Positions 7,903-64,000 of a DNA stretch of 64,000 bases are shown here, in pieces (position 1 is the stretch's first letter; every line of letters starts with the position of its first letter). Position numbers and translations under genes: made by a program. The stretch is from positions 6,158 to 70,157 of the forward strand of contig CAYYVQ010000005.1 in the NCBI GenBank assembly GCA_964475205.1, in the 5' to 3' direction. Under the pieces are notes generated by a model, which worked only from the letters and a program-made list of their open reading frames with translations, ran no database searches and was not told the origin of the DNA. Source of the stretch: an uncultured Victivallales bacterium. GTDB lineage: Bacteria; Verrucomicrobiota; Kiritimatiellia; UBA8416; CAYSRM01.

Positions 7903-8124
7903 AAGCCATAGAAAATAGCAGAACCAACGCCGGGCGACAACCCATAATCCTGGGCGTCTTCCCGCCGCAACCAAAGACGTTAGTCATTTGTTTGAGCCCC
8001 CGATCTTGCCTGCCACGTCGAATGACTGTGGTAAATCCCGCTGCGCCCTCCGAAGTCCCGGTGACCGCGGGCCTTGACAGCACGTGCGCTGTGCGGTTAC
8101 ATGTGTGTAAACAGGCAGTCGGAT

Positions 8125-9210
8125 ATGCAGATAATGAGTATAGCCAGAATAAACTTGCGGTGTTTGCTCTCAGCGCTGTTGCAGCTGCTCCTTGTTCTTA
8201 ATCTATGGACAGGGGCGCAAGCCGCTGAGTTGCGCGTACTTTCGCTTAATGCACAATGGTTTCCCGGAAGGACCCCAAGACCATCCAGGGCGCAGCGTGT
8301 ACGTCACATAAAAGATGTTCAGCATCTTCTCGCGAAAGTCAATCCCGATGTCTGGCTTGTACAGGAAGTGCAAGACAGGGCAGCGTTGAAGAAAGCTCTG
8401 CGTGTGCTGCCCGATATGAAGATACACGTCTACACAAAATTTCACTCAGGACTCCAGCTCGCAATTGCATCCCGCTTGAAACCATTGGCTGCCGGGTACG
8501 AAGAATGGGGCAGAAGCAAACCTGATCCACCCCGGGGCTATGCTTTCTGTGTATTTGATACCGGCGGGAAAGGGCGGCTTGCGGTTTACAATGTTCACTT
8601 CAAGTCGAACTATGCAGGACCGGGCGCTGACACCACCGAATCCGAAAATATAGCCATGCGTGAAAGCTCCGCCCGCCAGTTGGCTTTTCATTTATCAGAT
8701 ATCAAATCTCAGTTCGTGGCGGGGGCCACAGTTTTGATAGGCGGAGACTTCAATGTTGCATACCCGCGATCGTTGTACAAGCGGGAACGGACAGTGAAGA
8801 TACTCAGGGATGCGGGCTTGGAATGGCAGGGCGGCGGAGGCTATGACCATTTCTTTGGAAAGGGCAGCCTTTCTGCGAAAGCACGTTCTTTGAGGGAGTA
8901 CGATCTCAGCGATCACGACCCGATTCTTTGTGTTGCTAACCTGCCTGGAAAAGCGGAGATTGCCAGGGCCAGGCCGCTTACATTGAAAGAAGCCGCAGCC
9001 GATCTGGGCACTGGTCTAACGGATATAAACACTGCAGATCAGTCTGAACTGGAATCATTGCCCATGATAGGTCCTGTCAAAGCCAGGCGCATAATTGAAG
9101 GCCGCCCCTACAAAAAAACCAGGGACTTACTCAAAGTCAAGGGAATCGGCCCTGCAATCCTGGATAAAATCATGGACAGCATCACAGTAATTACCGCCGA
9201 CCCCACTTGA
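8125..9210 (+). CDS. secreted endonuclease/exonuclease/phosphatase (EEP) family nuclease fused to a C-terminal ComEA-like helix-hairpin-helix DNA-binding domain
   Basis: Signal peptide. EEP motifs (LSLNAQ..., LVQEV, IGGDFN, SDHDPI). C-terminal region (LESLPMIGPVKARRIIEGRPYKKTRDLLKVKGIGPAILDKI) matches ComEA HhH. Confidence 0.7.
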   Translation: MQIMSIARINLRCLLSALLQLLLVLNLWTGAQAAELRVLSLNAQWFPGRTPRPSRAQRVRHIKDVQHLLAKVNPDVWLVQEVQDRAALKKALRVLPDMKIHVYTKFHSGLQLAIASRLKPLAAGYEEWGRSKPDPPRGYAFCVFDTGGKGRLAVYNVHFKSNYAGPGADTTESENIAMRESSARQLAFHLSDIKSQFVAGATVLIGGDFNVAYPRSLYKRERTVKILRDAGLEWQGGGGYDHFFGKGSLSAKARSLREYDLSDHDPILCVANLPGKAEIARARPLTLKEAAADLGTGLTDINTADQSELESLPMIGPVKARRIIEGRPYKKTRDLLKVKGIGPAILDKIMDSITVITADPT

Positions 9211-9431
9211 TCCCTATCGCAAAGTGATAGAAATCAAATTAACCCGCATATCTCACGAGTTCAGCGTACTACAGATCCAAGACGTTTTGTTTAATGAAAT
9301 TCCGTGAACGGGAAGAACAAGCGCCACCTGGCAGGGTTTTTAGAACAGGTTGGCTTCTAGCGGGGCCAAGTTCGCCTGCTAATGTCAGACGGCAGTTGGA
9401 CTGTTGAGTCAAGAACGGGCGTATTATTCGA

Positions 9432-9677
9432 TTGCGTCGTGAAGTCTACGCTATGGCTGACGCCAACGGCAACGTCGCTCCGCGTCGCTTCACTGCAGCA
9501 AACGCGAAGAAGAAGGGCTTTTACGTAAGTCTGCGATCGGCACTGGCTCACTACGGAATGATTCCAGAATACGTGCCGGTTACTACAAGTGTAACCACCG
9601 GGCGTCCTGATGAACTGGAGATACCGATTGGCTGTTTTCAAACACCGCTCTTCTCCCTGTCTTTTCTCTTCTTCTAA
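9432..9677 (+). pseudogene. fragment resembling the N-terminal domain of an AbiEi-type (type IV TA) antitoxin/regulator
   Basis: FYVSLRSALAHYGMIPEYVPVTTSVTTGR resembles the AbiEi_4 core. Only ~80 codons, no partner gene. Confidence 0.25.
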
Positions 9678-9707
9678 AAGCAACTGACTTCAGATAGAAT
9701 TGCGAGC

Positions 9708-12677
9708 ATGAGTCAGACCATAACACAACTGTTTCTGATAAATGCCATACTTGCAAGCGCAGCAGTTTCCGGCTGTAGAACAAGCTGGGACCAAACATAT
9801 TTTCAGCATGATGTGCCCGGAAATGCGGTGGAATTTTCCGGCGAAGAATATGCGATCCGCACACATGAGGGTAAGGGATACAAGCAGGGAGAATGGGCAA
9901 AGGCAAATAAAGAAAGATCGATTACTTCTTGCTGCAAGCATTTCGATTTCGAGTTAAAAGAAAATCATCTTGTGGACAATGAAGGAAACAAATGGACTCT
10001 CGATCCGCCGGATTGGCCACTGCGGCGGCTTGATCGTAAAACCGTTAAGGTTGAAGTCGTTGATAAGGACAGCAAAGTGCCTGTACCTGAATTCCGCTAT
10101 CGCTATTCCCTTTCGGCTCCCCGGGGCAGGGAATATCCGACGTGGGTAATAATGCGCCAGGTGAAAAACCCGGCAGGAACGGTTGAGATCGAAACACCGT
10201 TCGCCTGTGAAATGGATCTTGTCGTAGATTCTTTGCATTACTTGTGCCATGGATGCGGGCATGGTTATCACCGCAAAGTCATTGTGTCCACCGACACGAA
10301 TCAGGTAGTTACAGTCGAACTTAAAAGAGGGCTGACAGTTGAAGGTATCGTTCTGGATGCGGATTCAGATCAGCCCGTTGAAAAGGCTAAGGTTGCGCCG
10401 CTCATTGACCGCCATCCTCTATTATGTCCAAACAGGCATCGTATGGTAAAAACCGATTCATCCGGCCGGTTCAAGGTTCATGCGGTTCATGAATACATGG
10501 GCCTCTGGGTTGAACATGAACGTTATGGCGAAACAGAGATCGAGAAGGTTAAGGAATGGCCGCAAGTAGAAGACGATCCGTTCACTCGGCGTAAGACAAT
10601 ATCTCTTAAGCAAGCTCCCGGCATCACAGGCAAAGTTGTTTCCACTGGCGGTCAGCCGATAGAAAGCGCTGAAGTCACAAGTTACAATGGCCGCCGGACA
10701 ACATCAGATTCTGATGGCAAATTTGTCATCTACGGCGCAGAACGCAACCTTGAGTTTTCTGCTCCGGGCTTCATAGAGAAAAAGGTGAGCATTACAAACG
10801 GTATGGCCTGGGCGGATGTTGCATTGCAGCCGGAGTTCCTATTAACCGGTTTTGTCAGAACTCCGGCAGGAAAACCGGTGACAAACTTTACTGCCGTTAC
10901 CCGCGACGGCAAGTATTGCGGGCCGCATAATGAGAAAAAGAAGACATTCACCAATTCACAAGGCAAGTTCCAATTCAAGATCAGTGAACCCGTCACCAAT
11001 CTGGTTGCCATTGTTGCGGACGGATTTGCCCTTAAACAAGTTCCTGCTATTCTGAAACGCCCTGCCGAACCGCTGACCGTTACTCTTGAAAAGGGCCTTC
11101 GGGTTTCCGGGATAATTGAATTGCCCCGTGAAGTTAAAGAACAGGTTGAGGTAGCGCTCATACCTCAACGCTGCGGTTCCCTTTGGCAGGATTATACCGG
11201 CGGCCCTGCGTGGGTGACTGACAAGCTAATTCTTAATCGGTTGCATGTTGGCGGTGAAACCGTCATAAACTTGTCCAGCAAAATCGTCACGGCAAACACT
11301 AATGGCGCTTATGTCTTCAGGAATGTTTCTCCCGGAAGCTACTCACTTCTGGTTCGAGGCGATGATATCCTGCCCTTTGAGCGAACTGTGCAGATAACGC
11401 ATGGCAAACAAAACCTGCCGGGTATCAAGCCAGCGCTTAAGGAGACAGGAGTTGTCAAGGGAAGGGTATTTAAACCGTTTGGAAGCTGTAAGGGCGCAAG
11501 ATGTTCACGGCCAGAGCCATGGCCCTTTGCAGAAGTAGATATTTCAGCAGGAGATGATCAATCATTCTACGCTGAGTTTTACAAGAAAACCAGAGCCGAT
11601 GAAGAGGGGTTCTATTCGGTGACCAACGTGGTTGCAGGCCCGGTTTCTGTATCCGTGAACTATCCTGTTACATTTGACATCGGAAACACGATGTTTGCGA
11701 CAGGTGTTGTGCGCCCAGGCGAGACTACAGTCCTGGATGTATTCCGCAAGAAGCGAGGCGAGTTGATTGAAGGCAAGGGTGAATTGAGGATCCATGTCTG
11801 TGTCGGCGACGGAAGCAAAGAAGATTTCAGAAGGGGACAGGGCCTGGCTTCGGGGGAAAATGTGGATGAGGCGAAACTCTCCGAATGGCGCCCCGAACTT
11901 ATATACCTGGATCAATCATCTTCCTGCGCAGCCAGGAAGGCCAAAATAAAGCCGGCAAGTTCCGAGTGCATGTTCGTGATTACGAACCTTCCAAAAGGTA
12001 ATGCGAAGTTGAATCTGCTCGATGAAAGCGATAGCTGGGAAAAAAGAATAATATGGTCCACAGAGTCACCTTTGAACATACCTGAAAAGGGACGAGTCAA
12101 AAAAAACGTGATCCTTCCGCCGAACTCATTGACAGGTAGAGTCACAAACGAAGAGGTGTCTATGTATACGGACCTGTATCTTGTGTGCGGTGGCAAAGAA
12201 GAACATATCCCGACAGGAAGTCCTGACAAAAGCAGAGCCTTCCGGTTCCCGTTCATCCCCCGGGGGAGTTACGAATTTATAGCACATCAGGCGCGGATAG
12301 GTTGGTGCAAGGTGAATGACATTGAAATATCCGGTCTTTGCGATGTTGGAGAAATTGAGCTCAAACCGGGTGCAAGAGTAACCGCCAGGCTTATGGGCAA
12401 CTGGACTCCGGTCCGTTCAGCAGACCAGTATGTGGTGAGCATTACGCATAAAGGGACCGGATTAACGCTGTCCTCTTCGCCAAATCTTGGCTCAAATGGC
12501 GGCACGGCTGTATTTAACAATATCTGGCCGGGCAGCTGGCGCCTGGAGCTGAAGCTTCGGCGCTCGGACAAGAAAACCTTTTTCGAAACAGACCTTGAGA
12601 TAACTGCCCGTGAGCATATTGACATTGATATGGAATGGTCCGAAATTCCCGAGCTGAGCAACCTTAAACACAAATAA
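9708..12677 (+). CDS. large lipoprotein with repeated carboxypeptidase-regulatory-like (prealbumin-fold) domains
   Basis: Signal peptide with lipobox (AAVSGC). Several repeats of the G-V-D..G.P...A.V....TD..G.F pattern. Confidence 0.55.
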   Translation: MSQTITQLFLINAILASAAVSGCRTSWDQTYFQHDVPGNAVEFSGEEYAIRTHEGKGYKQGEWAKANKERSITSCCKHFDFELKENHLVDNEGNKWTLDPPDWPLRRLDRKTVKVEVVDKDSKVPVPEFRYRYSLSAPRGREYPTWVIMRQVKNPAGTVEIETPFACEMDLVVDSLHYLCHGCGHGYHRKVIVSTDTNQVVTVELKRGLTVEGIVLDADSDQPVEKAKVAPLIDRHPLLCPNRHRMVKTDSSGRFKVHAVHEYMGLWVEHERYGETEIEKVKEWPQVEDDPFTRRKTISLKQAPGITGKVVSTGGQPIESAEVTSYNGRRTTSDSDGKFVIYGAERNLEFSAPGFIEKKVSITNGMAWADVALQPEFLLTGFVRTPAGKPVTNFTAVTRDGKYCGPHNEKKKTFTNSQGKFQFKISEPVTNLVAIVADGFALKQVPAILKRPAEPLTVTLEKGLRVSGIIELPREVKEQVEVALIPQRCGSLWQDYTGGPAWVTDKLILNRLHVGGETVINLSSKIVTANTNGAYVFRNVSPGSYSLLVRGDDILPFERTVQITHGKQNLPGIKPALKETGVVKGRVFKPFGSCKGARCSRPEPWPFAEVDISAGDDQSFYAEFYKKTRADEEGFYSVTNVVAGPVSVSVNYPVTFDIGNTMFATGVVRPGETTVLDVFRKKRGELIEGKGELRIHVCVGDGSKEDFRRGQGLASGENVDEAKLSEWRPELIYLDQSSSCAARKAKIKPASSECMFVITNLPKGNAKLNLLDESDSWEKRIIWSTESPLNIPEKGRVKKNVILPPNSLTGRVTNEEVSMYTDLYLVCGGKEEHIPTGSPDKSRAFRFPFIPRGSYEFIAHQARIGWCKVNDIEISGLCDVGEIELKPGARVTARLMGNWTPVRSADQYVVSITHKGTGLTLSSSPNLGSNGGTAVFNNIWPGSWRLELKLRRSDKKTFFETDLEITAREHIDIDMEWSEIPELSNLKHK

Positions 12678-16049: not shown

Positions 16050-16284
16050 AACCTATATACGGCACTTGAAATTCGGGAAGCGATGTATATTATTACAAAT
16101 AAGGAGTTTACAATTTATTGCGCCCCCACCCAAAGGGTGCGGGCGAGCTTCCCGAATTTCAAGCCGCAAGGGGTTGCCGATTTCACTGCATCTGCTTCGT
16201 TCTGAGGTCTTCGGCATAGTTACTATAGCCGAAAACCTCACGCCTTGCAGCTACAGCAAACTCGGCAACTGCCGTTTCTAGGTT
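16050..16284. repeat. MITE family E copy 1 (~230 bp, imperfect TIR AACCTATATACGGC / GCCGTTTCTAGGTT, internal 16-bp-stem hairpin)
   Basis: Identical (inverted) to 59511-59745. ORF-track ORFs 15928..16281 and 16053..16241 are repeat artefacts. Confidence 0.7.
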
Positions 16285-20145: not shown

Positions 20146-20223
20146 GCTTTCATTACTCTTCATTAAACTTTTGACACTACCGAATCGGTTTGATGATGTC
20201 AAGATCGGCGGCAACGCCATCAG

Positions 20224-20416
20224 CAATTCTCATTATGGCCTCTTTCCGCCAAAACCTATTTGTATAACGATGTGCGTAGTAGCGCGGGCTTCACCGAAGC
20301 CCAGCGCTCTTGGGGCCTCGGCTTCGGTGAAGCCGGGCCTACTCGCGCGTGGCTGCAATATCGTGCCGGAACTCTGGCCACGCCAAACGTGGCAAAATGG
20401 CCATAATGAGAATTGC
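20224..20416. repeat. MITE family C copy 1 (~190 bp, perfect 18-bp TIR GCAATTCTCATTATGGCC)
   Basis: TIRs and the central palindrome GGGCTTCACCGAAGCCC...GGCTTCGGTGAAGCCGGGCC. Second copy at 57204-57396. Confidence 0.75.
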
Positions 20417-36711: not shown

Positions 36712-36768
36712 TTGGACAGAATCAACAAATTTATCGTATATTTCATAGTAGAAAACTTTTTTAGCCTG

Positions 36769-36931
36769 ATCTATTCATCAACTTCGTGATAAGAGTGCGC
36801 ATGTTGCTTTAGATCAATGGCTTTGTGCAGATAGCCGGGTGTAGGCGCATAGACATGCGTCAAAATCGGCTGGCCAGCAAAGTCGTTGAGATGAAGTGAC
36901 ATGAACACTCGTAATAGATTTTTATGAATAG
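36769..36931. repeat. MITE family D copy 1 (~165 bp, TIR GATCTATTCATCAA / TTTTTATGAATAG(A/C)TC)
   Basis: About 92% identical to 55573-55739. The 63-aa ORF inside is not conserved in the second copy. Confidence 0.7.
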
Positions 36932-54986: not shown

Positions 54987-55370
54987 TTATTCAGTTGCAT
55001 GGCGCTGGTCCGTATAGGATTCAAATGCAGGTACGCTGGCCAACAGCAACCATGATCCTGTTCCGTCTATGAGTTTACTCTTGAATCTACCCTGGAAAAC
55101 ATGACCGATCCTGTTGCGCTTTGCTTTGAACCACGCGCTGTAGCTGACATTCAGCCACTGAATTGACTGGCTGGCATTGGCATAGGGAGTTTGGATTATC
55201 AGGTGATAATGGTTGCAGAGAAGCACATAGGAATGAACACTCACGCTATATCGCTCTGTCATTTCCTCGAGCAATTCCAGAAAGTGTTCATAGTAACGAT
55301 TGGTAAAGAATATTTTCTTACGTTCTATGCCCCGGGACGTAACATGATACTAGCCCTGCCCTTTACCCAT
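54987..55370 (-). pseudogene. RAYT/IS200-like HUH transposase pseudogene (in-frame TAG at codon 7, C-terminal half missing)
   Basis: ATG-GGT-AAA-GGG-CAG-GGC-TAG then YHVTSRGIERKKIFF...CNHYHLII...HVFQGRFKSKLID, the canonical RAYT N-terminus with the HUH motif. No Y-x-x-x-N-P tyrosine region downstream. Confidence 0.55.
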
Positions 55371-55572
55371 AAATACTGACAGGGCTCACGCCCTTTCATT
55401 TCCTTGGATCGTTGGAAGCAGGTCGGTTAAGCGTATCCAAGTAAGGGTGGCGGTTAAGAAAGCGACTAAGCGTACGATCAGGTGCGCGCTTCGCTCTCAC
55501 ACTTAAACCTACACTTCACCGCACACGTAAGCTCACACTTACTTATTTACACCTAAACGAACTGCTTAGCCT

Positions 55573-55739
55573 TATCTATTCATCAACTTCGTAATGAGAG
55601 TGCGCAGGTTGCTTTAGATCAATGGCTTTGCGCAGATAGCCGGGTGAAGGCGTATGAACATACGTCAAGATCGGCTGGCCAGCAAAGTCGTTGAGATTAA
55701 GTGACATGCACACTCGTAATAGGTTTTTATGAATAGATC
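55573..55739. repeat. MITE family D copy 2
   Basis: See 36769-36931. Confidence 0.7.
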
Positions 55740-55948: not shown

Positions 55949-57028
55949 TCACATTCTCAGCAGTACAGCCCCGCTGCTGAAACCGCCTCCTACAGCGCTT
56001 AAAAGGACAATATCGCCCTTTGTTATCCGGCCATCGCGGACGGCCTCACCCAAAGCAATGGGCACAGAGGCCGATGACGTATTCCCGACCCGATCCACGT
56101 TTACCACGACTTTCTCCATGGGACATCCCAAAACTTGAGCAATATTTTCGATAATCCGAATGTTGGCTTGGTGTGGAATCAGCCAGTCCACGTCCCCTAT
56201 ATCCAGACCTGTCTTTTGGAGCACGTCCCGGCTTGCCCGGGTAACGCCCTGGATGGCCACCTTGAAAACTATCTTGCCGTCCATCTTGATTACCCTGCCT
56301 TCAGCAGCCCTCAGCGTCGTTCTACCCACTGTCCCTGATCCTTCACACTGAAGAATGTCGGTGTACTGCCCCTGAGAGTACAGACTGACACCAAGCACTC
56401 CTGAGCGCGTATCAGCGCCTTCGGGCTTCTTGCGTTCCAGAACAACGGCGCCGGCGCCGTCCCCGAATAACACGCATGTTGTTCGATCCTGAAAATCAAG
56501 AATGGAAGAATATATCTCGGCGCCAATAACAAGAGCGTTCCTTGCGAACCCGGCCTGGATATGGGCATATGCTGAACTCAACGCAAAAATAAAACCACTG
56601 CAAGCGGCGCTGATGTCGTACGCATAGGCATTTTCCGCGCCGATCCTGCGTTGTACAAAATTGGCAGTGGCCGGCAGTCGCATGTCCGGCGTATTGGTGG
56701 CGAGAACAATGGCGTCAAGACCTGCAGGTGCAATCCCGGCTGCATTCAGAGCCTTGAGGCCGGCATCCGAGGCATAGTCCGATGTCCGGTCTGTTGTGTC
56801 GGCAAACCGCCGTTCGTGAATTCCCGTTCTTTTCCGGATCCATTCATCAGAAGTGTCCACCATCTTCTCAAATTCGGTGTTGGGAACCACGCGCTCTGGA
56901 AGCGCGTATCCCGTCCCTACCAAGCGTGTCTCAAATTGTTCCACCGCCGCCTCCTCTGCTTTTTCCAGGGCAGAATGCTTTCGGGCCGTGTCCCGTATCT
57001 TCTGGCCGTTTTGTTGAATTAGTGTCAT
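55949..57028 (-). CDS. fabH: 3-oxoacyl-ACP synthase III (KAS III) with a ~30-aa N-terminal extension, stand-alone (no other fab genes nearby)
   Basis: Active-site Cys context DISAACSGF, HQAN and N...S family motifs. Confidence 0.85.
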   Translation of the reverse strand: MTLIQQNGQKIRDTARKHSALEKAEEAAVEQFETRLVGTGYALPERVVPNTEFEKMVDTSDEWIRKRTGIHERRFADTTDRTSDYASDAGLKALNAAGIAPAGLDAIVLATNTPDMRLPATANFVQRRIGAENAYAYDISAACSGFIFALSSAYAHIQAGFARNALVIGAEIYSSILDFQDRTTCVLFGDGAGAVVLERKKPEGADTRSGVLGVSLYSQGQYTDILQCEGSGTVGRTTLRAAEGRVIKMDGKIVFKVAIQGVTRASRDVLQKTGLDIGDVDWLIPHQANIRIIENIAQVLGCPMEKVVVNVDRVGNTSSASVPIALGEAVRDGRITKGDIVLLSAVGGGFSSGAVLLRM

Positions 57029-57203
57029 TTACAATTCCTCTCTATCACTAAATGCTTTTGTCGTCGCAAACTCCCTTTGCCACATAAGTATCCAATATGT
57101 TCGTTACCAGGTGTAACAGAAGCGAGTTTTACTCCTGAGAAATAGGGACATACAATTTATCATCACTTGCTGCCATCGCGCAAGTGGTCCAGGATTCCGA
57201 GCA

Positions 57204-57396
57204 GCAATTCTCATTATGGCCTCTTTCCGCCAAAACCTATTCGTATGACGATGTGCGGGTAGTAGCGCGGGCTTCACCGAAGCCCAGCGCTGTTGGGGCC
57301 TCGGCTTCGGTGAAGCCGGGCCTACTCGCGCATGGCTGCAATATCGTGGCGGAACTCTGGCCCACGTCAAACGTGACAAAATGGCCATAATTATTG
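57204..57396. repeat. MITE family C copy 2 (right TIR partly degraded)
   Basis: See 20224-20416. Confidence 0.7.
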
Positions 57397-57556
57397 CTGG
57401 ATTCCGAGTTTGAGAAACACTGGTGCGAAGCCAGAAACGAACAGGCTATGGGCGATGCAATACATCTGACGGAAAGACGGCGTTCGGGCGAAAATAGTCA
57501 GTAGTCTCAGCCCCTGCGTTTAGCCTGTCAAATAAGTCAGTCAAAAGAGTATAGCA

Positions 57557-58531
57557 TTATATAGTCTGAGGCTCCATAACTGTGCCAGTCGAGGATATTC
57601 CAGGTTTTCTTTCAGATGCTTCGGGTTCCACTTTTCTTGCCTCTTTTTCCGAATCATGTAGCCGTTTCAGGCTTGGATAACGCCTGAAAGCCATAAACCT
57701 CATCAGACGGTCGCGAAGCCGAACGCGGCCGAATGGCGCCCATCCGCGATAGTAGCTGTGTCCGTAAGGATCGAAGTAGAAGTTATAAGGAACAGCTTTG
57801 ATCCCGGGCCTCTTGAGAAGCACACGAAGCGCTTCTGTTGCGATTATACCCGAAGACATCAGTATGGCCGATATAAGAGCAGGGCCCTTCTCCTTTTCAA
57901 AATCAACCGATGATGTGTCCATCTGCTTGGGATTAGGCAGCTTTGGAAGAATGCCGATCGCGAAGGCTATAATGCGCTCGGCACGTGTCATGCCGGGCTT
58001 GATGCCAAAGTACTGTTCAAACGTCATTCCTTTCGGGTCAAATATCTGAACAGAAGACCCGTATCCAATCGGTCCGGCGGTTATTGCGAAAATCCCTTTC
58101 TCCCGCGCCTTCTGAAAGATAAGTATTCGCGCGTCAACCTGGAAAAAGTCCACACCGTCAAGATAGATATCCGCTTTATCAAGGAACGAATCCACATTAT
58201 TCTCTCCGATGGCTTCAGAGATCACGGTTAATTCCACTTCGGGATTGATCTGGCGCGTCATCTCAGCCATGACTTCGGCTTTGCCGCGACCAATGGTGTT
58301 CACAAAGGCGCCGGCCTGGCGATGGAGATTCAGCGGCTCATAAATGTCAGGATCAGCAATAATGAACTTGCCGATCCCCATGCGGGCCAGAGTAAGCAGG
58401 TGATGACCGCCAACAGCGCCCATACCGGCTATGGCAACCGTGGCATTACGCAGTTTTTCCTGCTCTTCGCGCGCAATCAGCCCGATATTCCTGGAAACAG
58501 CTTCTTCTCTCAATTCCTTAGTCCAGATCAT
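57557..58531 (-). CDS. ThiF/MoeB/HesA family E1-like adenylyltransferase (no rhodanese or zinc-finger extension)
   Basis: IAGMGAVGGHHLLTLARMGIGKFIIADPD nucleotide-binding motif. Confidence 0.8.
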   Translation of the reverse strand: MIWTKELREEAVSRNIGLIAREEQEKLRNATVAIAGMGAVGGHHLLTLARMGIGKFIIADPDIYEPLNLHRQAGAFVNTIGRGKAEVMAEMTRQINPEVELTVISEAIGENNVDSFLDKADIYLDGVDFFQVDARILIFQKAREKGIFAITAGPIGYGSSVQIFDPKGMTFEQYFGIKPGMTRAERIIAFAIGILPKLPNPKQMDTSSVDFEKEKGPALISAILMSSGIIATEALRVLLKRPGIKAVPYNFYFDPYGHSYYRGWAPFGRVRLRDRLMRFMAFRRYPSLKRLHDSEKEARKVEPEASERKPGISSTGTVMEPQTI

Positions 58532-58549
58532 TTGTTGCCCCTTTCTTAT

Positions 58550-58600
58550 TGAAAAATTCGTATCTTCACCCTTATATGGTCAAAAAACGTCAAGTGTCAC
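58550..58600 (-). promoter_or_regulatory. conserved promoter-like motif copy 1 (minus strand: T-rich, GTGACA-N17/18-TATAAG, GGGTGAAGA.ACG.AATTTTCA), ~35 nt upstream of the ThiF-family start
   Basis: Three-way alignment with 60821-60872 and 63199-63240. Confidence 0.55.
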
Positions 58601-58662
58601 AAAAAAAAATCGATGAACCCAGGTCGTTAACCCGGACGGCAGACGCCGACCGCTCGCCTGCT

Positions 58663-59478
58663 CTACGCATGGGCATCGCTTTCCGGCCCAAAGCCAGGGG
58701 TGACTGCCGAACATGTTATTGCAATTGCTGAAACCCCGGCCGGATACAGTATATTTCTCTCGATGGTTTCCGAAATCGGCATGCTCAGGCCCATGTCTTC
58801 AACCATGTCTTGTATTTGGCGCAAAGAGTAGGATCGACGGCAGGAAACTAAACCATCCCAGAAAAACATAAGAGAAAACAAAGGCACGACATACGTGAAC
58901 AGCATCATCGTTGGCCAATCCCGGCGCCGTGCGACAAAAGGCAAGGTCAGCAATATGGTCAATGGCCCGACCAGCATGGAAATGAAACTCAACAGCGTGT
59001 TTCGAACATATTCCAGAATAAAAATGTCACGTCCCCGGCTGCAACTGTTTCTTATGATCTGTTTCGCTTGATCGACGTCAAAGTGGTGAAAGGAGTTGAT
59101 AAAAATCATCGGACAGGAATATTCCCCGTTGTCGGCCATGGCATCGACGGGTTTGGAAACATAGCGAATCTGTTGGTCCTTGTTTCGGTTGATTTTTTCA
59201 CACCATTCAGGATTCGGCCTGATATCGCTAAGAAGAAACCTTGTCTTTGCGTACGTCTCCCTTTTCAGATGCGAGACAATCAGTCTCAAAGGTTCACCCG
59301 ATCCAGAACCGTATTCCATCAAGGTATCCGATTTTGTTTCGCGAATGAAATTCGACAACGGCTTGACCCATAGTTTGTAGTATCCGAACCATTTGTAGCA
59401 CAGCACAAGATACCTGTGCAGATACACGCGATACCAGACAGGCGATCCGGGCCAGTCGCCAAACTCGAAAAGTTTCAT
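58663..59478 (-). CDS. class I SAM-dependent methyltransferase with C-terminal transmembrane segments
   Basis: Motif I LMEYGSGSGEPL. Start moved to MKLFEF (59478) because the ORF-track N-terminus lies inside MITE E. Confidence 0.6.
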   Translation of the reverse strand: MKLFEFGDWPGSPVWYRVYLHRYLVLCYKWFGYYKLWVKPLSNFIRETKSDTLMEYGSGSGEPLRLIVSHLKRETYAKTRFLLSDIRPNPEWCEKINRNKDQQIRYVSKPVDAMADNGEYSCPMIFINSFHHFDVDQAKQIIRNSCSRGRDIFILEYVRNTLLSFISMLVGPLTILLTLPFVARRRDWPTMMLFTYVVPLFSLMFFWDGLVSCRRSYSLRQIQDMVEDMGLSMPISETIERNILYPAGVSAIAITCSAVTPGFGPESDAHA

Positions 59479-59510
59479 CTTCGCCCCCGTAAACAGCTCA
59501 CGGCGGTTTA

Positions 59511-59745
59511 AACCTAGAAACGGCAGTTGCCGAGTTTGCTGTAGCTGCAAGGCGTGAGGTTTTCGGCTATAGTAACTATGCCGAAGACCTCAGAACGAAG
59601 CAGATGCAGTGAAATCGGCAACCCCTTGCGGCTTGAAATTCGGGAAGCTCGCCCGCACCCTTTGGGTGGGGGCGCAATAAATTGTAAACTCCTTATTTGT
59701 AATAATATACATCGCTTCCCGAATTTCAAGTGCCGTATATAGGTT
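59511..59745. repeat. MITE family E copy 2 (inverted relative to copy 1)
   Basis: See 16050-16284. Confidence 0.7.
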
Positions 59746-59807
59746 AAAAGCTTCCGACCTATTGTTATTCAGAGCTTGCAGGGGAATCTCAGCAAAGCGT
59801 CCCCGGA

Positions 59808-60788
59808 CTATGCCTCCAAACGTTCATTAGTGTCCGCCATCGGTTCAATTCCGAAATAAGGCGCCTCGTGTTCCGGCATTGGCCGATAGGCCGCTGCCAT
59901 GGTTTCTGCTAAAGCCGATTCGCGATCCGCGCTCCAGAAATGAGGATACAAGGTGCGTTCCTTCACCGAAGAGCCGCGACCGCCAACCCGTTTGACTTCG
60001 CGAGTCGGGATAGCCAGATCCAAGCACGCCAGAACGGCAGGCGCCCCCCCAACCCGCGGACACGTCTGTTGGGCGCCGCTCATTTCGAAACCCAGGGTCC
60101 GTTTATAATATTTCAGATGCCGCGGATGCACCTCAATCATGAAATCGGTATAGCCGCGCACACCTTTCGCGTAAATGTAGATCAAGTTGAAAAGCCGCAA
60201 GAGTACTTCGCGCGAATCCTTGCAATCCTTGTGCAACGCAAGCCGCGTCACCTCCGCCATGTACCGGCCCCTGGCGCGCATGCGGTTTGTCTCAGCGCGA
60301 TAAATCTCGTCACAGGGCAACCCCTTGTCAGAATCGAACACCAGCGAAACTGTGCCAACTATCGACCCGTTCTGGTCTTCGGCAAATATAGTAAAGGTTT
60401 CAGGCCCGGCATCGTAGGGCGATACCACCATGCCTGAATCGGCCTGCGCCAGCGAAACGCCGCTGTATATCTCATGGGCAAACCGATATACCCGTTCGCG
60501 ACTAACAATATCCGACGCCACGCTAAACCGGTAAACATCGCCCGAAACAGTCGCGATTTCAGTGATAAGTCCATCATCTTCACGTTCAATCCAGGGCATC
60601 TGCGTGGTCTCACACGGATCGGCCGGCAAAGAATTCCCAGCCTGTTGCCGCGTTATGCATATCCAGGAGTCCAGCTTCAAAGCCTTACCTTTTATTTCTG
60701 AACGACATTTCCCGTACCCCATCCTGGCCGGTTCGGCGCATTCTACTGTAAATTCGGCATTGTTCATCTTTTCTGATATGTCTTTCAT
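59808..60788 (-). CDS. autoinducer-synthase-fold GNAT acyltransferase resembling FeeM-type long-chain N-acyl amino acid synthases
   Basis: YRFSVASDIVSRERVYRFAHEIY, MAEVTRLALHKD, and the C-terminal EVHPRHLKYYKRTLGFEM (the PRH..FY.R.LGF pattern of N-acyl amino acid synthases). Start at MKDISEK with a GGAGGGG SD. The ORF-track start at 60989 is an over-extension. Confidence 0.5.
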   Translation of the reverse strand: MKDISEKMNNAEFTVECAEPARMGYGKCRSEIKGKALKLDSWICITRQQAGNSLPADPCETTQMPWIEREDDGLITEIATVSGDVYRFSVASDIVSRERVYRFAHEIYSGVSLAQADSGMVVSPYDAGPETFTIFAEDQNGSIVGTVSLVFDSDKGLPCDEIYRAETNRMRARGRYMAEVTRLALHKDCKDSREVLLRLFNLIYIYAKGVRGYTDFMIEVHPRHLKYYKRTLGFEMSGAQQTCPRVGGAPAVLACLDLAIPTREVKRVGGRGSSVKERTLYPHFWSADRESALAETMAAAYRPMPEHEAPYFGIEPMADTNERLEA

Positions 60789-60820
60789 CACATCCCCTCC
60801 CGAAATATTATCCGCCTCGC

Positions 60821-60872
60821 ATGAAAATTGCGTCTCTTCAGCCCTATATGGTCGGAAAACGTCAAGTGTCAC
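60821..60872 (-). promoter_or_regulatory. conserved promoter-like motif copy 2, ~55 nt upstream of the NAS-like gene start
   Basis: See 58550-58600. Confidence 0.55.
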
Positions 60873-60924
60873 AGAAAAAGGGCGAATGGCGCCGGGGATA
60901 CGGTGGTTGTTGGGGCGGCAAAGG

Positions 60925-62427
60925 TTATTTGACGCTGGAAAGGAGCATTTCAGGATGCATAACCAGGGCTTCTTTCGAGTCGAAAGCAAGCGTTGAACTT
61001 TTCACGGGGAAAACCCTGATCTGAGTGAATTGCGCAATCAAATCTTCTGCGGACAGCCACAGGGCAAAAGATGGCCCGGGCATCTTGAGCGTGGCAGACC
61101 CGAAATACATAAGCTTATCTTCCTGCCAGTAGGTCTTTTTAAAGACTTTGCCCGCGCCCCTTGATCGTGCATCCACAGCATACTCGATTTTCCCGATCTG
61201 CCACTTGTTTGGAGAAATACGGGGTTTCTTCTGTCTATAAAGCTGTTTCCATTTTGCGCTTTCTCCTGTTACACAGGACACATCTATCCTGGACATATTT
61301 TTTGTTTCTGTTGCACGGGAACCGAATGTGACCACAAATCGATCAACATCAATACTTTGCTTGCAAACCAGGTTAATCCACCCCTTGACGCCACGGGCAT
61401 CGATCTCAACCGATTTCTGTTTTTTTCCGTCCCTCATCACATCCACAATACGGATCCGGCTTTTCTCCGCCTCCGGCAGTTCATGAGCAACCCCGTCTCT
61501 TTTCTCCCAATACGGCTTCCATTGGGCAATCCCCGAACTGAAATCCTCAACAAAGATCGGCTTTCCAAAGACCGTTGCATGCCCCCGCTTGTCGGAAACC
61601 ACAAGTTCGGAGGCATGAACCATCAATGCTTCGTTGTTGTCCGTTTGCCATCGCATGCTTCCTTCCGTAACATGCAGTCTTGAGAATTCCTCCATAGAAG
61701 ACATCGCGAACCTGGTGCCGACCACTGTGGCGTTACCGTGTCCGGTCCCGACAACCATAGGCTTGCCCGGTTTTTGTTCCATAACGGACGCCGCCAGAGA
61801 GCCCTTTTTCAAGAACAGCCGCTTCTCCCCTTCGCTCGACACCTGACATCTGACGGAAGAGACTTTCCTGATCTCGACAACGGTGTTCCCCCTGTCCATA
61901 GCCAGGGAAACCCGTCCATCCCCTGCGGTTTCAAGCCAGCAGCCCCGGCGCCATAATTCATCGGTAAGGGTTGAAACAATATTGCCATCAAGATCCCTTA
62001 AGGTAACGGTTCCCTGCCGCGCCTTTAGCGTTACATTGCCGGTAACAGATTCAATGCCCTCCGCAGCGAACCAGATTCCAGCGCCGACAACCAGTAGCAC
62101 ACCGGCTGCCATCGCAAGCAGCGGATAGAGTTTTAATGATCTGCGCGACGCGCGTTTCTTTACATGATCCATTACACTTGCTTGAAACTCCGACCCCGGC
62201 AAATCCTGCTCCTGCTTGAGATCCGCCACCCTCTGCCTGACCCGGCTTTCGAAATCAGTCCTGTCGCACATGAGCAGTCGTCCAAGCAGGTCGTCGACAG
62301 AAAGCAGCTCATGCAATCGGCCTGACAATTCGGGATCCTTTTTCAAGTCCTCGATCAGTATAGCCAGCTCCTCCCCGGAAAGACTGTCCCGATCCTCAAT
62401 GAATTTTGCCACAACTTCACTATTCAT
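60925..62427 (-). CDS. FecR-domain anti-sigma factor (single TM helix, large periplasmic domain)
   Basis: N-terminal anti-sigma region, TM LLAMAAGVLLVVGAGIW, FecR-like domain. Overlaps the ECF sigma gene by 8 nt. Confidence 0.7.
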   Translation of the reverse strand: MNSEVVAKFIEDRDSLSGEELAILIEDLKKDPELSGRLHELLSVDDLLGRLLMCDRTDFESRVRQRVADLKQEQDLPGSEFQASVMDHVKKRASRRSLKLYPLLAMAAGVLLVVGAGIWFAAEGIESVTGNVTLKARQGTVTLRDLDGNIVSTLTDELWRRGCWLETAGDGRVSLAMDRGNTVVEIRKVSSVRCQVSSEGEKRLFLKKGSLAASVMEQKPGKPMVVGTGHGNATVVGTRFAMSSMEEFSRLHVTEGSMRWQTDNNEALMVHASELVVSDKRGHATVFGKPIFVEDFSSGIAQWKPYWEKRDGVAHELPEAEKSRIRIVDVMRDGKKQKSVEIDARGVKGWINLVCKQSIDVDRFVVTFGSRATETKNMSRIDVSCVTGESAKWKQLYRQKKPRISPNKWQIGKIEYAVDARSRGAGKVFKKTYWQEDKLMYFGSATLKMPGPSFALWLSAEDLIAQFTQIRVFPVKSSTLAFDSKEALVMHPEMLLSSVK

Positions 62428-62947
62428 GGATCATCCCCCGGCTCATATTATCCTGGATGCACTCCCGGAGACTTTCGCGGATCCGCAGCATCGCCATACG
62501 CACAGCGCCGGCTTTCATGTCTACAACGCGTGAAATCTCCTGCGCATTCAAATTTTTCTCGTATTTCAGTGATATAAGTTTTCGACTGCTTTCCGAGAGT
62601 TTCTGAAGACATACCTTGAGACTCTCGAACGCGCCTGCAAAGAGAGATGGCTCCCCGGAAGTCTCTGCCTCTGAAAGCAGTTCAGCGATGGCCTCGTAGC
62701 GCCTGGCCTGTTTCCTTTTTGTCTTGCGAAAATGGTTCATGCACAGGTTACGGGCAATGCCCTTCAGCCATCGAATCGGTATAGTGTCTTCAGGCATCTT
62801 GTGCATGCCCTTGTAGAAGGCCACGTAAACCTCCTGGGCGATATCATCAACCTCGTCCGAAGACACTCCCAGTCCGGCAATGTAAGCGCGCACCATGTGC
62901 TGGCTTTCACTTAGAATCTGCTCAAATTTTTCAAGGTCTTGCTTCAT
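62420..62947 (-). CDS. ECF-subfamily RNA polymerase sigma-70 factor
   Basis: Sigma-2 region (DIAQEVYVAFYKG) and sigma-4 region (LNAQEISRVVDMKAGAVRMAMLRIRESL). Confidence 0.85.
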   Translation of the reverse strand: MKQDLEKFEQILSESQHMVRAYIAGLGVSSDEVDDIAQEVYVAFYKGMHKMPEDTIPIRWLKGIARNLCMNHFRKTKRKQARRYEAIAELLSEAETSGEPSLFAGAFESLKVCLQKLSESSRKLISLKYEKNLNAQEISRVVDMKAGAVRMAMLRIRESLRECIQDNMSRGMIHE

Positions 62948-62953
62948 AATGCT

Positions 62954-63199
62954 TTAGCCTACCATTGCTTGTTGCGGGTAACAACCTGCAAATTCAGCGC
63001 TCTCCGTGAGTAATCTTATGATGTGTTCCTGTATCCAGTTAGAAGCTTTTGAAACGAGCGCCCAGGCTCTGCGGCGAAGTTCCAGGGTATCGGCTATTAC
63101 AACTTCATATTCATTGCAATTTCCAAACGTATATCGGCCGGAAACCGGCCATTTTACTGGAATCCCTGTCGAATATTGGACTGTTTTTAACGCCTTCAT
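62954..63199 (-). CDS. possible small ORF (82 aa) or long leader immediately downstream of motif copy 3
   Basis: The ATG lies directly after the conserved GGGTG of the motif. No SD, no recognisable domain. Confidence 0.2.
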   Translation of the reverse strand: MKALKTVQYSTGIPVKWPVSGRYTFGNCNEYEVVIADTLELRRRAWALVSKASNWIQEHIIRLLTESAEFAGCYPQQAMVG

Positions 63200-63240
63200 C
63201 ACCCTTATATGGACAAAAAGCAGCAAGTGTCACAAAACCA
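63199..63240 (-). promoter_or_regulatory. conserved promoter-like motif copy 3, heading the small-ORF / ECF sigma / anti-sigma unit
   Basis: See 58550-58600. Confidence 0.5.
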
Positions 63241-63290
63241 ACGAAAAAAAGCTTAAAAAAGATTGGTTGACACAAGACCGACCGGTCGGT

Positions 63291-63896
63291 ATGTTTAAAG
63301 CCATGAGTTCTAATAGTCATAAATCCAGCACAGGACGCGAAGAAAGAATTGCATCTTATGTGCATAAGGCTACCGGCTTGTTTGCGGCAAAAGGGTATCG
63401 ACAGGTGGGAGTTCAGGAAATTATTGATTGTCTTGGGCTCAGCAAGGGTGGATTTTATTGCTATTTTTCGTCCAAGGAGGATTTCTACATACAGATATGC
63501 AAGGCGCATTGTTCTGCAAACAGGCAACTTTTTGCAAATCTCTTGGATGGAAAGCAGCTTTGCCCTGAGACCATCCGGACAACGGCAGTTGCTCTGCTGG
63601 AATGGTTTCTGGATCATCCGGTGCAAATTCGCCTTATGATAGATTTTCACAATGAAAGCGATTCAGATGAAATCAGGAATGAACTCAAACGCCTCAATAA
63701 TGAGTGGATTAAAGTTATAACTTCGCTTGTTAACGCCTGCCGTGAGCATGGTTTTATATCCAACGCCATGCCTTCAGAAATGATAGCCCGCCAGTATATT
63801 GCTTTTTTTACGGGGTTATTGCTGCTTTCCGCGGTTTACCGTGAGAAAGAACGGATACTTAAACAATGGGAAACTTTCCTGGACTCTTTTTTGTGA
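63291..63896 (+). CDS. TetR/AcrR family transcriptional regulator, divergent from the ECF sigma unit
   Basis: HTH YRQVGVQEIIDCLGLSKGGFYCYFSSKEDF. Start at MFKAM or MSSN (63291/63303), and the ORF-track start at 63006 is an over-extension. Confidence 0.8.
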   Translation: MFKAMSSNSHKSSTGREERIASYVHKATGLFAAKGYRQVGVQEIIDCLGLSKGGFYCYFSSKEDFYIQICKAHCSANRQLFANLLDGKQLCPETIRTTAVALLEWFLDHPVQIRLMIDFHNESDSDEIRNELKRLNNEWIKVITSLVNACREHGFISNAMPSEMIARQYIAFFTGLLLLSAVYREKERILKQWETFLDSFL

Positions 63897-64000
63897 AGAA
63901 GGCGCAGTGACCCGGGACAGGGACAGAATATAAGATGAAAGAAAGAATACTGAAACTTCTGAAACAAATACTCTGGCACAGGAAAACAACCACCGGCGTT

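Follow-up and report, generated by a model that had tools for sequence, protein, structure and literature searches.

The 64-kb window (the whole stretch of DNA that was analysed) carries on its minus strand a set of genes for an ECF sigma factor, a FecR-type anti-sigma factor, a FeeM-family N-acyl amino acid synthase (NAS), a membrane methyltransferase-fold protein, a cysteine-free ThiF homologue and a FabH. Sequence comparisons indicate that these genes form a genuine, co-regulated cluster of a Kiritimatiellae/Verrucomicrobia-like bacterium, and that the cluster's product is most likely a modified fatty-acyl amino acid lipid. The best explanation, to which we assign a probability of roughly 60%, is that the ECF sigma/anti-sigma pair controls the synthesis of a tailored N-acyl amino acid lipid by a nitroreductase-less variant of the OxzAB/TyzABC-type pathways. 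The core chemistry (NAS and ThiF) is not new, having been known since 2020; what is new is the regulation. An ORF check and profile searches bore out the coordinates and domains of the six minus-strand ORFs proposed in an earlier sequence-only reading, and its gene identities were right. The features are as follows:

55949..57028, minus strand: FabH (KAS III) with a short N-terminal extension (TIGR00747, 368 bits; cut-off 292)
57202..57391: inserted repeat in the ThiF/FabH gap, which includes a hairpin with 27-nt arms
57557..58531, minus strand: stand-alone ThiF-family enzyme, 324 aa (PF00899, E-value: 3.7e-43; NF006077, 332 bits, cut-off 266)
58573..58600, minus strand: motif copy 1, 42 nt ahead of the ThiF ATG
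58663..59478, minus strand: membrane-anchored class-I SAM-methyltransferase-fold protein, 271 aa (fold match)
59511..59745: inserted repeat in the FeeM/methyltransferase gap, with perfect 17-nt terminal-like inverted repeats
59808..60788, minus strand: FeeM-family N-acyl amino acid synthase, 326 aa (PF21926, E-value: 6e-44)
60845..60872, minus strand: motif copy 2, in the space between the FecR and FeeM genes, 57 nt ahead of the FeeM ATG
60925..62427, minus strand: FecR-type transmembrane anti-sigma factor, 500 aa (PF04773 FecR, 33.5 bits; cut-off 24)
62420..62947, minus strand: ECF sigma factor, 175 aa (Sigma70_r2 and r4_2 domains)
63206..63233, minus strand: motif copy 3, 259 nt ahead of the sigma ATG, in the region between the divergent sigma and TetR genes
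63291..63896, plus strand: divergent TetR-family regulator (TetR_N domain; 63291 is the probable start)

The synthase has the autoinducer-synthase fold and its best PDB match is FeeM itself (2G0B, E-value: 4e-9). Homologues 61-72% identical to it are found in Kiritimatiellae and related metagenomic contigs. When the GNAT was checked against the possibility of an ordinary acetyltransferase, the profile-HMM match was again to FeeM. For the two families that the sequence-only reading had named for a check, profile searches returned no TIGR03694 match in the window and no Autoind_synth match at threshold. The string PRHLKYYKRTLGF, taken in the sequence-only reading for the C-terminus, belongs to the conserved core (residues 222-234). 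The conserved domain begins at about residue 75 and the N-terminus is variable; the ORF at its full length (393 aa) runs into the FecR gene, the NCBI start is Met8, and the likely start is the ATG at 60788 (326 aa). Because FabH is adjacent, it is plausible that this synthase is acyl-ACP-dependent.

The ThiF-family enzyme also scores on the models for the ThiF-nitroreductase fusion family (NF011424, 299 bits) and the NAS-ThiF fusion family (NF011425, 223 bits), and it matches betaproteobacterial ThiF-nitroreductase fusions with E-values of 1e-69 to 1e-73. It contains no cysteine, retains the GxGxxG and DGVD nucleotide-binding motifs and has the cyclodehydratase TcdA as its closest PDB entry. 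Proteins of the same subfamily (E-values: 1e-60 to 1e-113) adjoin FeeM in Kiritimatiellae, Planctomycetota, Beta- and Gammaproteobacteria, and in Proteobacteria a nitroreductase domain is often fused to them or encoded next to them, an arrangement published for oxazolone pathways (bioRxiv 10.1101/2020.06.11.147165; PMC10404671; PMC12856293). By these family models, the window protein is assigned to the OxzB/TyzB-type subfamily as a putative ATP-dependent N-acyl amino acid cyclase. A NAS with a ThiF-like ATP-dependent cyclase is already a published pathway, leading to oxazolones and N-acyl-dehydrotyrosines (bioRxiv 10.1101/2020.06.11.147165; PMC10404671; PMC12856293; PMC12479983); thus, while the ThiF-family assignment stands, the protein is best read as a small-molecule cyclase rather than a generic E1. 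Two points count against the cluster reading here: the oxidase that defines the known pathways is missing from the window, and an unconjugated oxazolone would be labile. A profile made from nitroreductase domains of related proteins had no match in the window, and a Pfam scan of the neighbours showed no nitroreductase. Clades of ThiF that lack a nitroreductase recur, and they are not contig artefacts.

The PDB matches of the ThiF protein also include MccB and PaaA, which raises the alternative of a lipopeptide or RiPP-like product, in which ThiF, as an MccB/PaaA-type enzyme, would work on the C-terminus of a small peptide and the FeeM homologue, with its GNAT fold, would N-acylate the same peptide. 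In three Kiritimatiellae loci, small ORFs (38-62 aa) do lie directly ahead of FeeM, and two of these ORFs resemble each other at the C-terminus. We regard this alternative as highly improbable for three reasons. First, the FecR-FeeM space in the window is 137 nt and is taken by the motif, which leaves no room for a small ORF. Second, the MccB and PaaA matches are weak and confined to the Rossmann region. Third, it is this ThiF subfamily that is found fused to nitroreductase and NAS domains, with small molecules as substrates in all characterised cases.

The sigma and anti-sigma genes overlap by 8 nt (sigma stop/anti-sigma start), so that translational coupling of the pair can be read directly in the sequence. 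The sigma factor scores 121.9 bits against TIGR02989, the Rhodopirellula/Verrucomicrobium ECF family (cut-off 124.55). The anti-sigma factor has a single hydrophobic transmembrane segment (approximately residues 97-128), and its C-terminal ~225 aa have no Pfam match at E ≤ 1. Co-regulation with this pair, as previously suggested, is backed by a 28-nt promoter-like motif, GTGACACTTGNNGNTTTNNGNCCATATA, which occurs exactly three times in the 64 kb (zero copies expected). This shared motif is real, but it precedes only the sigma, FeeM and ThiF genes, and neither the methyltransferase gene nor FabH. The co-occurrence is directly visible; its dependence on the sigma factor we infer. The motif (GTGACA-N17-ATATAA) also resembles a housekeeping sigma-70 promoter with a flanking operator and could therefore be a repressor site, which counts against the sigma-dependent reading; one copy lies ~60 nt from the TetR start. 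The TetR gene itself is on the strand opposite to sigma, the next plus-strand ORF runs off the window, and the protein scores 60 bits against an ScbR-type model (cut-off 150). TetR regulation of the cluster is unsupported, as no homologue accompanies the module in any related locus. It is treated as a neighbour, with membership of the system not supported.

Co-location of the module is kept in relatives: the FeeM-ThiF pairing recurs in three phyla and the FeeM-sigma pairing in PVC loci. Of the 25 PVC loci, 19 have an ECF sigma gene within 5 kb of FeeM, compared with none of the 53 proteobacterial loci, and in most PVC loci the two genes are immediately adjacent. Related bacteria carry paralogous FeeM loci, 6-8 or more per genome (MAG), and across loci the sigma and anti-sigma partners are ~25% identical, while the synthases are 55-70% identical. 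These patterns, together with the autoinducer-synthase fold, would also fit LuxI/LuxR-like cell-cell or autocrine signalling, in which the cognate anti-sigma factor would use its extracytoplasmic domain (in Planctomycetota, the sigma factor its C-terminal extension) to recognise the compound made by the NAS, or what ThiF and the methyltransferase derive from it, with positive feedback and with the paralogous modules serving as separate channels. With the motif ahead of both the sigma and the FeeM gene, such a system would be autoinducing, and stieleriacines affect biofilm composition (PMC7293339). However, lipid binding by any FecR-type anti-sigma factor is without evidence, the C-terminal domain belongs to no recognisable family, orthogonal channels predict diversified synthases while these are rather conserved, and the conserved neighbour of an ECF sigma factor is usually its target gene and not a signal source. 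We therefore consider signalling rather unlikely.

The methyltransferase-like protein belongs to a family without a Pfam model and has no Pfam match. Its AlphaFold model (pLDDT 91.7) has only class-I SAM methyltransferases as top Foldseek PDB matches, with a probability of 1.0 against natural-product O-/C-methyltransferases. It carries a GSGSGE motif, a conserved FINSFHHF and two hydrophobic helices (residues 160-211). The FabH has an intact triad (Cys143/His286/Asn316), and its nearest relatives form a PVC-specific clade of 362-396 aa.

It could be argued that the functional unit is FeeM and ThiF only, FabH being a housekeeping KAS III and the methyltransferase-like protein a chance neighbour brought in by rearrangement and repeat insertions. 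Both genes are motif-less and are cut off from the preceding gene by inserted repeats, which also weighs against the cluster reading. These elements make up most of the two gaps: the repeat at 59511..59745 has a 100% identical inverted copy at 16050-16284, and that at 57202..57391 has a 94.7% identical copy at 20221-20407. The former is not part of the pathway, and its insertion accounts for the 330-nt FeeM-methyltransferase gap, against 89 nt in the close relative L122. FabH scores as bona fide and is ~50% identical to ordinary betaproteobacterial FabH, a Verrucomicrobia locus has a related FabH without FeeM (L120), and no FabH lies within 10 kb of FeeM in the best 80 FeeM loci of GTDB species representatives, so FabH is an occasional accessory. 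On the other hand, one Planctomycetota MAG has a pair of different FabH paralogues from this subclade directly beside FeeM(-ThiF)/sigma/FecR (L119 and L121), of which at most one can be the housekeeping copy, and the methyltransferase family occurs with NAS and ThiF in L122 (gaps of 89 and 52 nt) and in Methylomonas. The two-gene unit is accordingly unlikely. Given this recurrence in relatives, the methyltransferase and FabH are judged not to be bystanders, and FabH is probably dedicated to the pathway.

The preferred reading, a sigma-controlled lipid pathway, would proceed as follows. An envelope signal would inactivate the FecR-type anti-sigma factor, and the released ECF sigma factor would use the common motif to drive transcription of the FeeM and ThiF units as well as of its own operon. 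The dedicated FabH would introduce a particular starter into fatty-acid synthesis and so bias the acyl-ACP pool, and the FeeM-type synthase, as its family assignment suggests, would transfer the acyl chain onto an amino acid amine. By analogy with OxzB, TyzB and TrzS, for which oxazolone cyclisation was shown biochemically (bioRxiv 10.1101/2020.06.11.147165; PMC10404671; PMC12856293), the cysteine-free ThiF homologue may adenylate the carboxylate and cyclise it to a 5(4H)-oxazolone. Because no flavin oxidase is present, the product would not be desaturated; the membrane methyltransferase may then methylate the lipid or its activated oxazolone. The product would be either a signal or a lipid that is secreted or stays in the membrane.

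The combination had been called undescribed; the pairing of NAS and ThiF is already published, while the link of such loci to sigma factors, in many copies per genome, was not found described in the literature searched. Like FecI/FecR-type signalling, the window has a translationally coupled ECF sigma factor and FecR-domain transmembrane anti-sigma factor with a putative autoregulated promoter, but it lacks a TonB-dependent transducer and the target is a lipid-biosynthesis set. With LuxI/LuxR quorum sensing it shares the LuxI-like fold of the synthase, but there is no LuxR in the window and Autoind_synth stays below threshold. The fee cluster and the NAS associated with PEP-CTERM/exosortase (Van Wagoner & Clardy 2006; Craig et al. 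2011, as cited in PMC7293339) share Pfam family and fold with the window FeeM, whereas the window has no dedicated ACP, PEP-CTERM protein or TIGR03694 match.

Further close parallels are pathways with a ThiF-type cyclase. OxzAB of Pseudoalteromonas rubra (de Rond et al., bioRxiv 10.1101/2020.06.11.147165), compared via family models and fusions, likewise places an N-acyltransferase gene beside a ThiF-family ATP-dependent cyclase, but the window has no nitroreductase (oxidase) domain or gene, its N-acyltransferase is of the FeeM Pfam family, and it adds FabH, the membrane methyltransferase and the ECF/anti-sigma pair. In TyzABC/TrzAS of Mycobacterium tuberculosis (PMC10404671; PMC12856293), the FeeM-fold TyzA supplies an N-acyl amino acid that TyzB, a stand-alone ThiF homologue, cyclises; a flavin-dependent oxidase is always there (TyzC, or a domain fused in TrzS), regulation differs, and the window ThiF scores 53.9 bits against the Rv1355c family model (cut-off 476), over the Rossmann core only. 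The clusters for stieleriacine (Stieleria, Planctomycetota) and for kyonggic and thalassotalic acids (PMC12479983; PMC7293339) have nitroreductase and PEP-CTERM protein genes with no sigma factor listed, and their methyltransferases are soluble and UbiE/SfmM2-like, in contrast to the membrane family of the window. They nevertheless combine a PVC-superphylum NAS (NasY) with ThiF and methyltransferase genes, and the Stieleria region, like the window, includes a ketosynthase gene (FabF-type).

The genes that a sequence-only reading had listed in 55949-63896 are present, and their open reading frames and domain content agree with that reading.

Genes of the cluster and its divergent neighbour
62947-62420, minus strand: ECF sigma factor (Sigma70_r2 and r4_2 domains; TIGR02989 at 121.9 bits, slightly below the 124.55 cut-off)
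62427-60925, minus strand: anti-sigma factor with a FecR domain (8-nt overlap with the sigma stop)
Likely start ATG 60788, minus strand: N-acyl amino acid synthase of the FeeM family (PF21926, E 6e-44)
58663-59478, minus strand: methyltransferase-like protein of 271 aa (from its fold model; no Pfam match)
Between the methyltransferase gene and FabH, minus strand: ThiF-family protein (PF00899, E 3.7e-43)
Last gene in transcription order, minus strand: FabH (TIGR00747, 368 bits, cut-off 292)
Divergent from the cluster, plus strand: TetR-family gene, neighbour of the sigma gene

The proposed membership of the GNAT protein in the FeeM/N-acyl amino acid synthase (NAS) family was borne out by PF21926, which matches above its Pfam gathering score (150.1 bits, cut-off 27) and over the whole domain (profile positions 2-158 of 158). 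Its top PDB sequence match is FeeM itself (2G0B, E 4.2e-9). The two models that had been suggested for this protein were silent at E ≤ 0.01: the PEP-CTERM/exosortase acyltransferase model TIGR03694 matched no window protein, and neither did the LuxI-type Autoind_synth model (PF00765). No PEP-CTERM homologue lies within the window, and many proteobacterial loci have one. The peptide PRHLKYYKRTLGF, described as C-terminal, is in fact part of the conserved core; it aligns with FeeM 2G0B, and its residues P222, H224, Y228 and F234 are invariant among 27 homologues. The mechanically called ORF is 393 aa long and runs into the FecR gene; ATG 60788, with GGGAGGGG just before it, is the likely start and gives a protein of 326 aa, while the database copy starts at Met8. 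By family, FeeM is predicted to N-acylate an amino acid in an acyl-ACP/CoA-dependent manner. Small ORFs (62, 62 and 38 aa) lie directly 5' of FeeM at three loci of a Kiritimatiellae MAG (L001 9793-9981, L006 6431-6619 and L002 9844-9960), and the two 62-aa products are alike at the C-terminus (C..A..AW.AF..AP...P..R); these could be leader or precursor peptides, or merely conserved non-coding DNA.

The first two genes form an ECF/anti-sigma pair, with sigma regions 2 and 4, a FecR domain, a transmembrane segment and overlapping reading frames. When GTDB species genomes were scanned with the FeeM alignment, 80 loci were recovered. The nearest are six paralogous loci of one Kiritimatiellae MAG, followed by Planctomycetota MAGs that carry at least eight and at least seven FeeM genes and, after these, by Betaproteobacteria. 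Counts from iterated profiles place an ECF sigma gene within 5 kb of FeeM in 19 of the 25 non-redundant loci of the PVC superphylum, compared with 0 of 53 proteobacterial loci, and within 0.5 kb in 14 of those 25. The Kiritimatiellae order is FeeM-sigma-FecR; at Planctomycetota loci an ECF sigma of approximately 500 aa with an uncharacterised C-terminal extension is encoded immediately 5' of FeeM. The synthases are 55-70% identical, and the sigma factors approximately 25% identical to that of the window. Examples of the long sigma factors, with an unassigned extension of approximately 300 aa, are found among others at loci L017 (8220-9767), L018 (8171-9751) and L023 (12391-13959); in Planctomycetota the sigma genes are sometimes in tandem, with many sigma-FeeM modules per MAG. 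The C-terminal 225 aa of the window's anti-sigma (60928-61602, minus strand), presumed to be the sensor, show no conservation among the anti-sigmas at related loci, and Pfam has no match to them at E ≤ 1. A literature search found no paper linking N-acyl amino acid synthases to ECF or anti-sigma factors, and no sigma factor is listed in the stieleriacine papers or their cluster table.

The shared promoter motif of the sequence-only reading was recovered as a repeat before sigma, FeeM and ThiF. GTGACACTTGNNGNTTTNNGNCCATATA occurs in three copies in the 64-kb window (expected 0), with none further at up to 3 mismatches; the copies lie 259 nt 5' of sigma, 57 nt 5' of FeeM and 42 nt 5' of ThiF and belong to a 58-nt repeat family. 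No copy precedes the methyltransferase gene or FabH. Copies both ahead of a sigma gene and ahead of two biosynthetic genes are classically read as marking an autoregulated ECF regulon; dependence on the sigma factor is inferred. The motif also fits a sigma-70-like promoter (GTGACA-N17-ATATAA) with an operator, and both readings account for it. A looser pattern, TGTRACA-N15-19-TATA, matched the three window sites alone and nothing in the relatives; motif resemblances picked out by eye in the related loci L006, L002 and L121 had no statistical support.

The sigma-proximal copy and the TetR start are approximately 60 nt apart. The TetR gene had been counted as a regulator of the set, a view that found no support: no related locus has a TetR counterpart. 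The ScbR/gamma-butyrolactone-receptor model scores 60.3 bits against TetR, below its cut-off of 150. The window edge cuts off a plus-strand ORF (MKERILKLLKQILW..., about 63931-64000) that begins approximately 35 nt past the TetR stop, and TetR may regulate this ORF rather than the cluster.

FeeM and ThiF are encoded in one cluster with the methyltransferase gene between them, which is the pairing of the oxazolone pathways, and a ThiF of the window's subfamily stands beside FeeM in approximately half of the 80 loci, across phyla. The window ThiF is not a sulfur-carrier (ThiF/MoeB) or ubiquitin-type E1. It contains no cysteine in 324 aa, and so neither CxxC pairs nor a catalytic cysteine; though its nucleotide-binding motifs are kept (GMGAVG, DPD...RQ and DGVD), it can serve neither as a sulfur-transfer E1 nor as one that forms thioesters. 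No ThiS, MoaD or ubiquitin-like partner lies beside it, its neighbours being the methyltransferase gene and FabH. The ThiF and MoeB equivalog models also score far under their cut-offs (98 versus 275 and 67 versus 266). An anti-phage role (CBASS Cap2/E1-E2) was rejected as well, the match being confined to some 100 aa in the Rossmann region and scoring 55 bits at most; PADLOC found no match to the other five cluster proteins. Among solved structures, ThiF lies nearest to the ATP-dependent cyclodehydratase TcdA. The protein passes the NCBIfam equivalog NF006077 (332 bits, cut-off 266) and matches NF011424 (679-aa ThiF-nitroreductase fusions, 299 bits) and NF011425 (989-aa NAS-ThiF-containing fusions, 223 bits), the last of which is also matched by FeeM. 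The subfamily was placed by means of NCBIfam models and the related loci, with OxzB and TyzB known here by their descriptions. Judging by these relatives, ThiF probably activates and cyclises the N-acyl amino acid's carboxylate in an ATP-dependent reaction.

In Betaproteobacteria, ThiF is often fused to or adjoins a nitroreductase domain, with PEP-CTERM proteins close by. A profile built on the fused domains picked up 22 proteins from related loci and matched no window protein at E ≤ 10. A Pfam scan of the window's neighbour genes likewise found no nitroreductase, with limited sensitivity for a very divergent copy elsewhere in the genome, and the nearest relative (loci L001 and L008) has no such oxidase either. 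In the ThiF tree, loci without the oxidase fall in recurrent clades (the window with Kiritimatiellae; Methylococcales with Thiobacillus), and its absence is therefore a stable configuration rather than a contig artefact. The chromosomal surroundings of the cluster and of the related locus L004 have a GH2 mannosidase alone in common.

The 271-aa protein belongs to no named Pfam or NCBIfam methyltransferase family; neither it nor its distant relatives have a Pfam match above threshold. A search of the PDB with its confidently predicted structure (pLDDT 91.7) gave 197 matches at E ≤ 1e-3; the methyltransferase fold is common to the 50 top matches listed, mostly natural-product O- or C-methyltransferases. 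It has a glycine-rich SAM motif (GSGSGE, in MEYGSGSGE) and two hydrophobic helices inserted at residues 160-211. It is read as a membrane protein of class I SAM-methyltransferase fold, a putative enzyme. The close subfamily is tiny; the wider family (P0182-P0329) has at least 1,374 representatives at 50% identity (E ≤ 1e-10) and no Pfam model, and it also occurs in the Planctomycetota locus L022. The close relative L122 has the order ThiF-FeeM-methyltransferase, with identities of 74%, 69% and 86%, respectively. Past the methyltransferase gene, the end of the L122 contig (2534-2716) holds a pair of short FeeM-like fragments that differ in register, which may be a second NAS gene or else a chimera of the assembly. 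Methylomonas loci (L088-L090, about 7000-11500) read GNAT(PF13444)-membrane methyltransferase-GNAT-ThiF-PEP-CTERM, an oxidase-less NAS/ThiF/methyltransferase module in methanotrophs whose partner is PEP-CTERM instead of ECF.

Repeat insertions make up most of the FeeM-methyltransferase and ThiF-FabH gaps; in L122 the former gap is 89 nt. The segment 59511-59745 recurs inverted, at 100% identity, at 16050-16284, and the segment 57202-57391 shares 95% identity with 20221-20407. A third pair is formed by 55566-55736 and 36761-36931. These three intergenic elements of approximately 170-235 nt are MITE- or REPIN-like, with internal or terminal inverted repeats and second copies in the window that are 92-100% identical; two of them sit inside the cluster's intergenic regions. 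A structured RNA in the large gaps was rejected in favour of repeat insertion, as Rfam returned two sub-threshold chance matches alone. Just 3' of FabH is a shortened IS200-like Y1 transposase fragment (54987-55274, minus strand; PF01797, E 1.2e-5), which may be related to the repeat elements.

FabH carries the catalytic triad C143, H286 and N316 and also exceeds the cut-off of NF006829 (405 versus 249 bits). It does not lie in the plsX-fabH-fabD-fabG-acpP housekeeping setting: ThiF is on one side, and the IS200-like fragment, an ExbD-like ORF, heptose genes, pyrH and frr are on the other. Because no FabH was found within 10 kb of FeeM in any of the 80 related loci, the gene appeared to be a non-conserved bystander. 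That reading was overturned by the contexts of its closest homologues, which make up a PVC-specific subclade marked by N-terminal extensions and by motifs of its own. In one Planctomycetota MAG, one locus has the order sigma-FecR-sigma-FecR-FeeM-FabH-(B12 radical SAM) and another the order (B12-binding)-FabH-FeeM-ThiF-sigma-FecR; two such paralogues beside FeeM cannot both be housekeeping genes, which favours a pathway-dedicated FabH. A Verrucomicrobia relative has a FabH of this subclade without FeeM. A pathway-dedicated role is the better reading of the window FabH. Genes for B12-binding radical SAM proteins accompany FeeM/FabH clusters in Planctomycetota and Kiritimatiellae (loci L119 9315-10856, L121 1-1768 and L006 85-1755) and are absent from the window.

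The best-supported model is that the cluster is ECF-controlled and makes a tailored N-acyl amino acid lipid; its chemistry and substrate are predictions set beside the family assignments and co-occurrence statistics observed here. FabH would bias the acyl starter, FeeM would N-acylate an amino acid, the ThiF homologue would activate and cyclise the carboxylate with ATP and, the oxidase being missing, the membrane methyltransferase would supply the tailoring step. The product may be either a lipid of the envelope or a signal that the anti-sigma perceives. A wider proposal, which we consider unlikely, is that ECF sigma and FeeM synthase constitute a hitherto unrecognised family of lipid-signal circuits, spread across the PVC superphylum with many paralogues per genome, in which the N-acyl amino acid derivative of each synthase is sensed outside the cytoplasm by a cognate anti-sigma. 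In such circuits the sigma partner may be a FecR-type anti-sigma or the C-terminal sensor extension of the sigma itself, and they may be quorum-sensing-like, with sigma factors in place of LuxR. On this same proposal, the oxazolone that ThiF makes in the window's nitroreductase-less methyltransferase subtype might prepare the alpha-carbon or enol oxygen for methylation, which could lead to alpha-methyl or methoxy-oxazole lipids.

Among bacterial lipids and signals, N-acyl amino acids and acyl-oxazolones are an emerging class whose regulation and role are largely obscure; one group of them, the stieleriacines, shapes marine biofilms, and another, the tyrazolones, comes from M. tuberculosis. The cluster and roughly 20 related PVC loci tie lipid synthesis directly to ECF sigma/anti-sigma pairs. 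This link offers a handle for waking silent clusters, by anti-sigma removal or sigma overexpression, and a testable hypothesis on the purpose of the lipids, envelope response or signalling.

Pathways that combine an NAS with a ThiF-like cyclase include the OxzA/OxzB oxazolone synthetase (bioRxiv 10.1101/2020.06.11.147165), TyzA/TyzB/TyzC (PMC10404671) and TrzA/TrzS (PMC12856293), and comparative genomics has found NAS and ThiF, as well as a methyltransferase, in the stieleriacine, kyonggic acid and thalassotalic acid clusters (PMC12479983). The gene identities and FeeM family of the sequence-only reading stand, and its ECF link is backed by the three-copy motif; its wholly undescribed status falls, the NAS and ThiF core being already described, and its TetR membership is unsupported. 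The core chemistry is of a known kind, and the new element is the coupling of these lipids' synthesis to ECF sigma factors in paralogue-rich form in the PVC superphylum. In OxzAB, TyzABC, TrzAS and stieleriacine-type systems a nitroreductase-superfamily oxidase is fused or adjacent in every case; in contrast, the window's cluster has an oxidase-free configuration of a probably dedicated FabH, an uncharacterised membrane methyltransferase family and proposed ECF control, a subtype that predicts products unlike any described so far.
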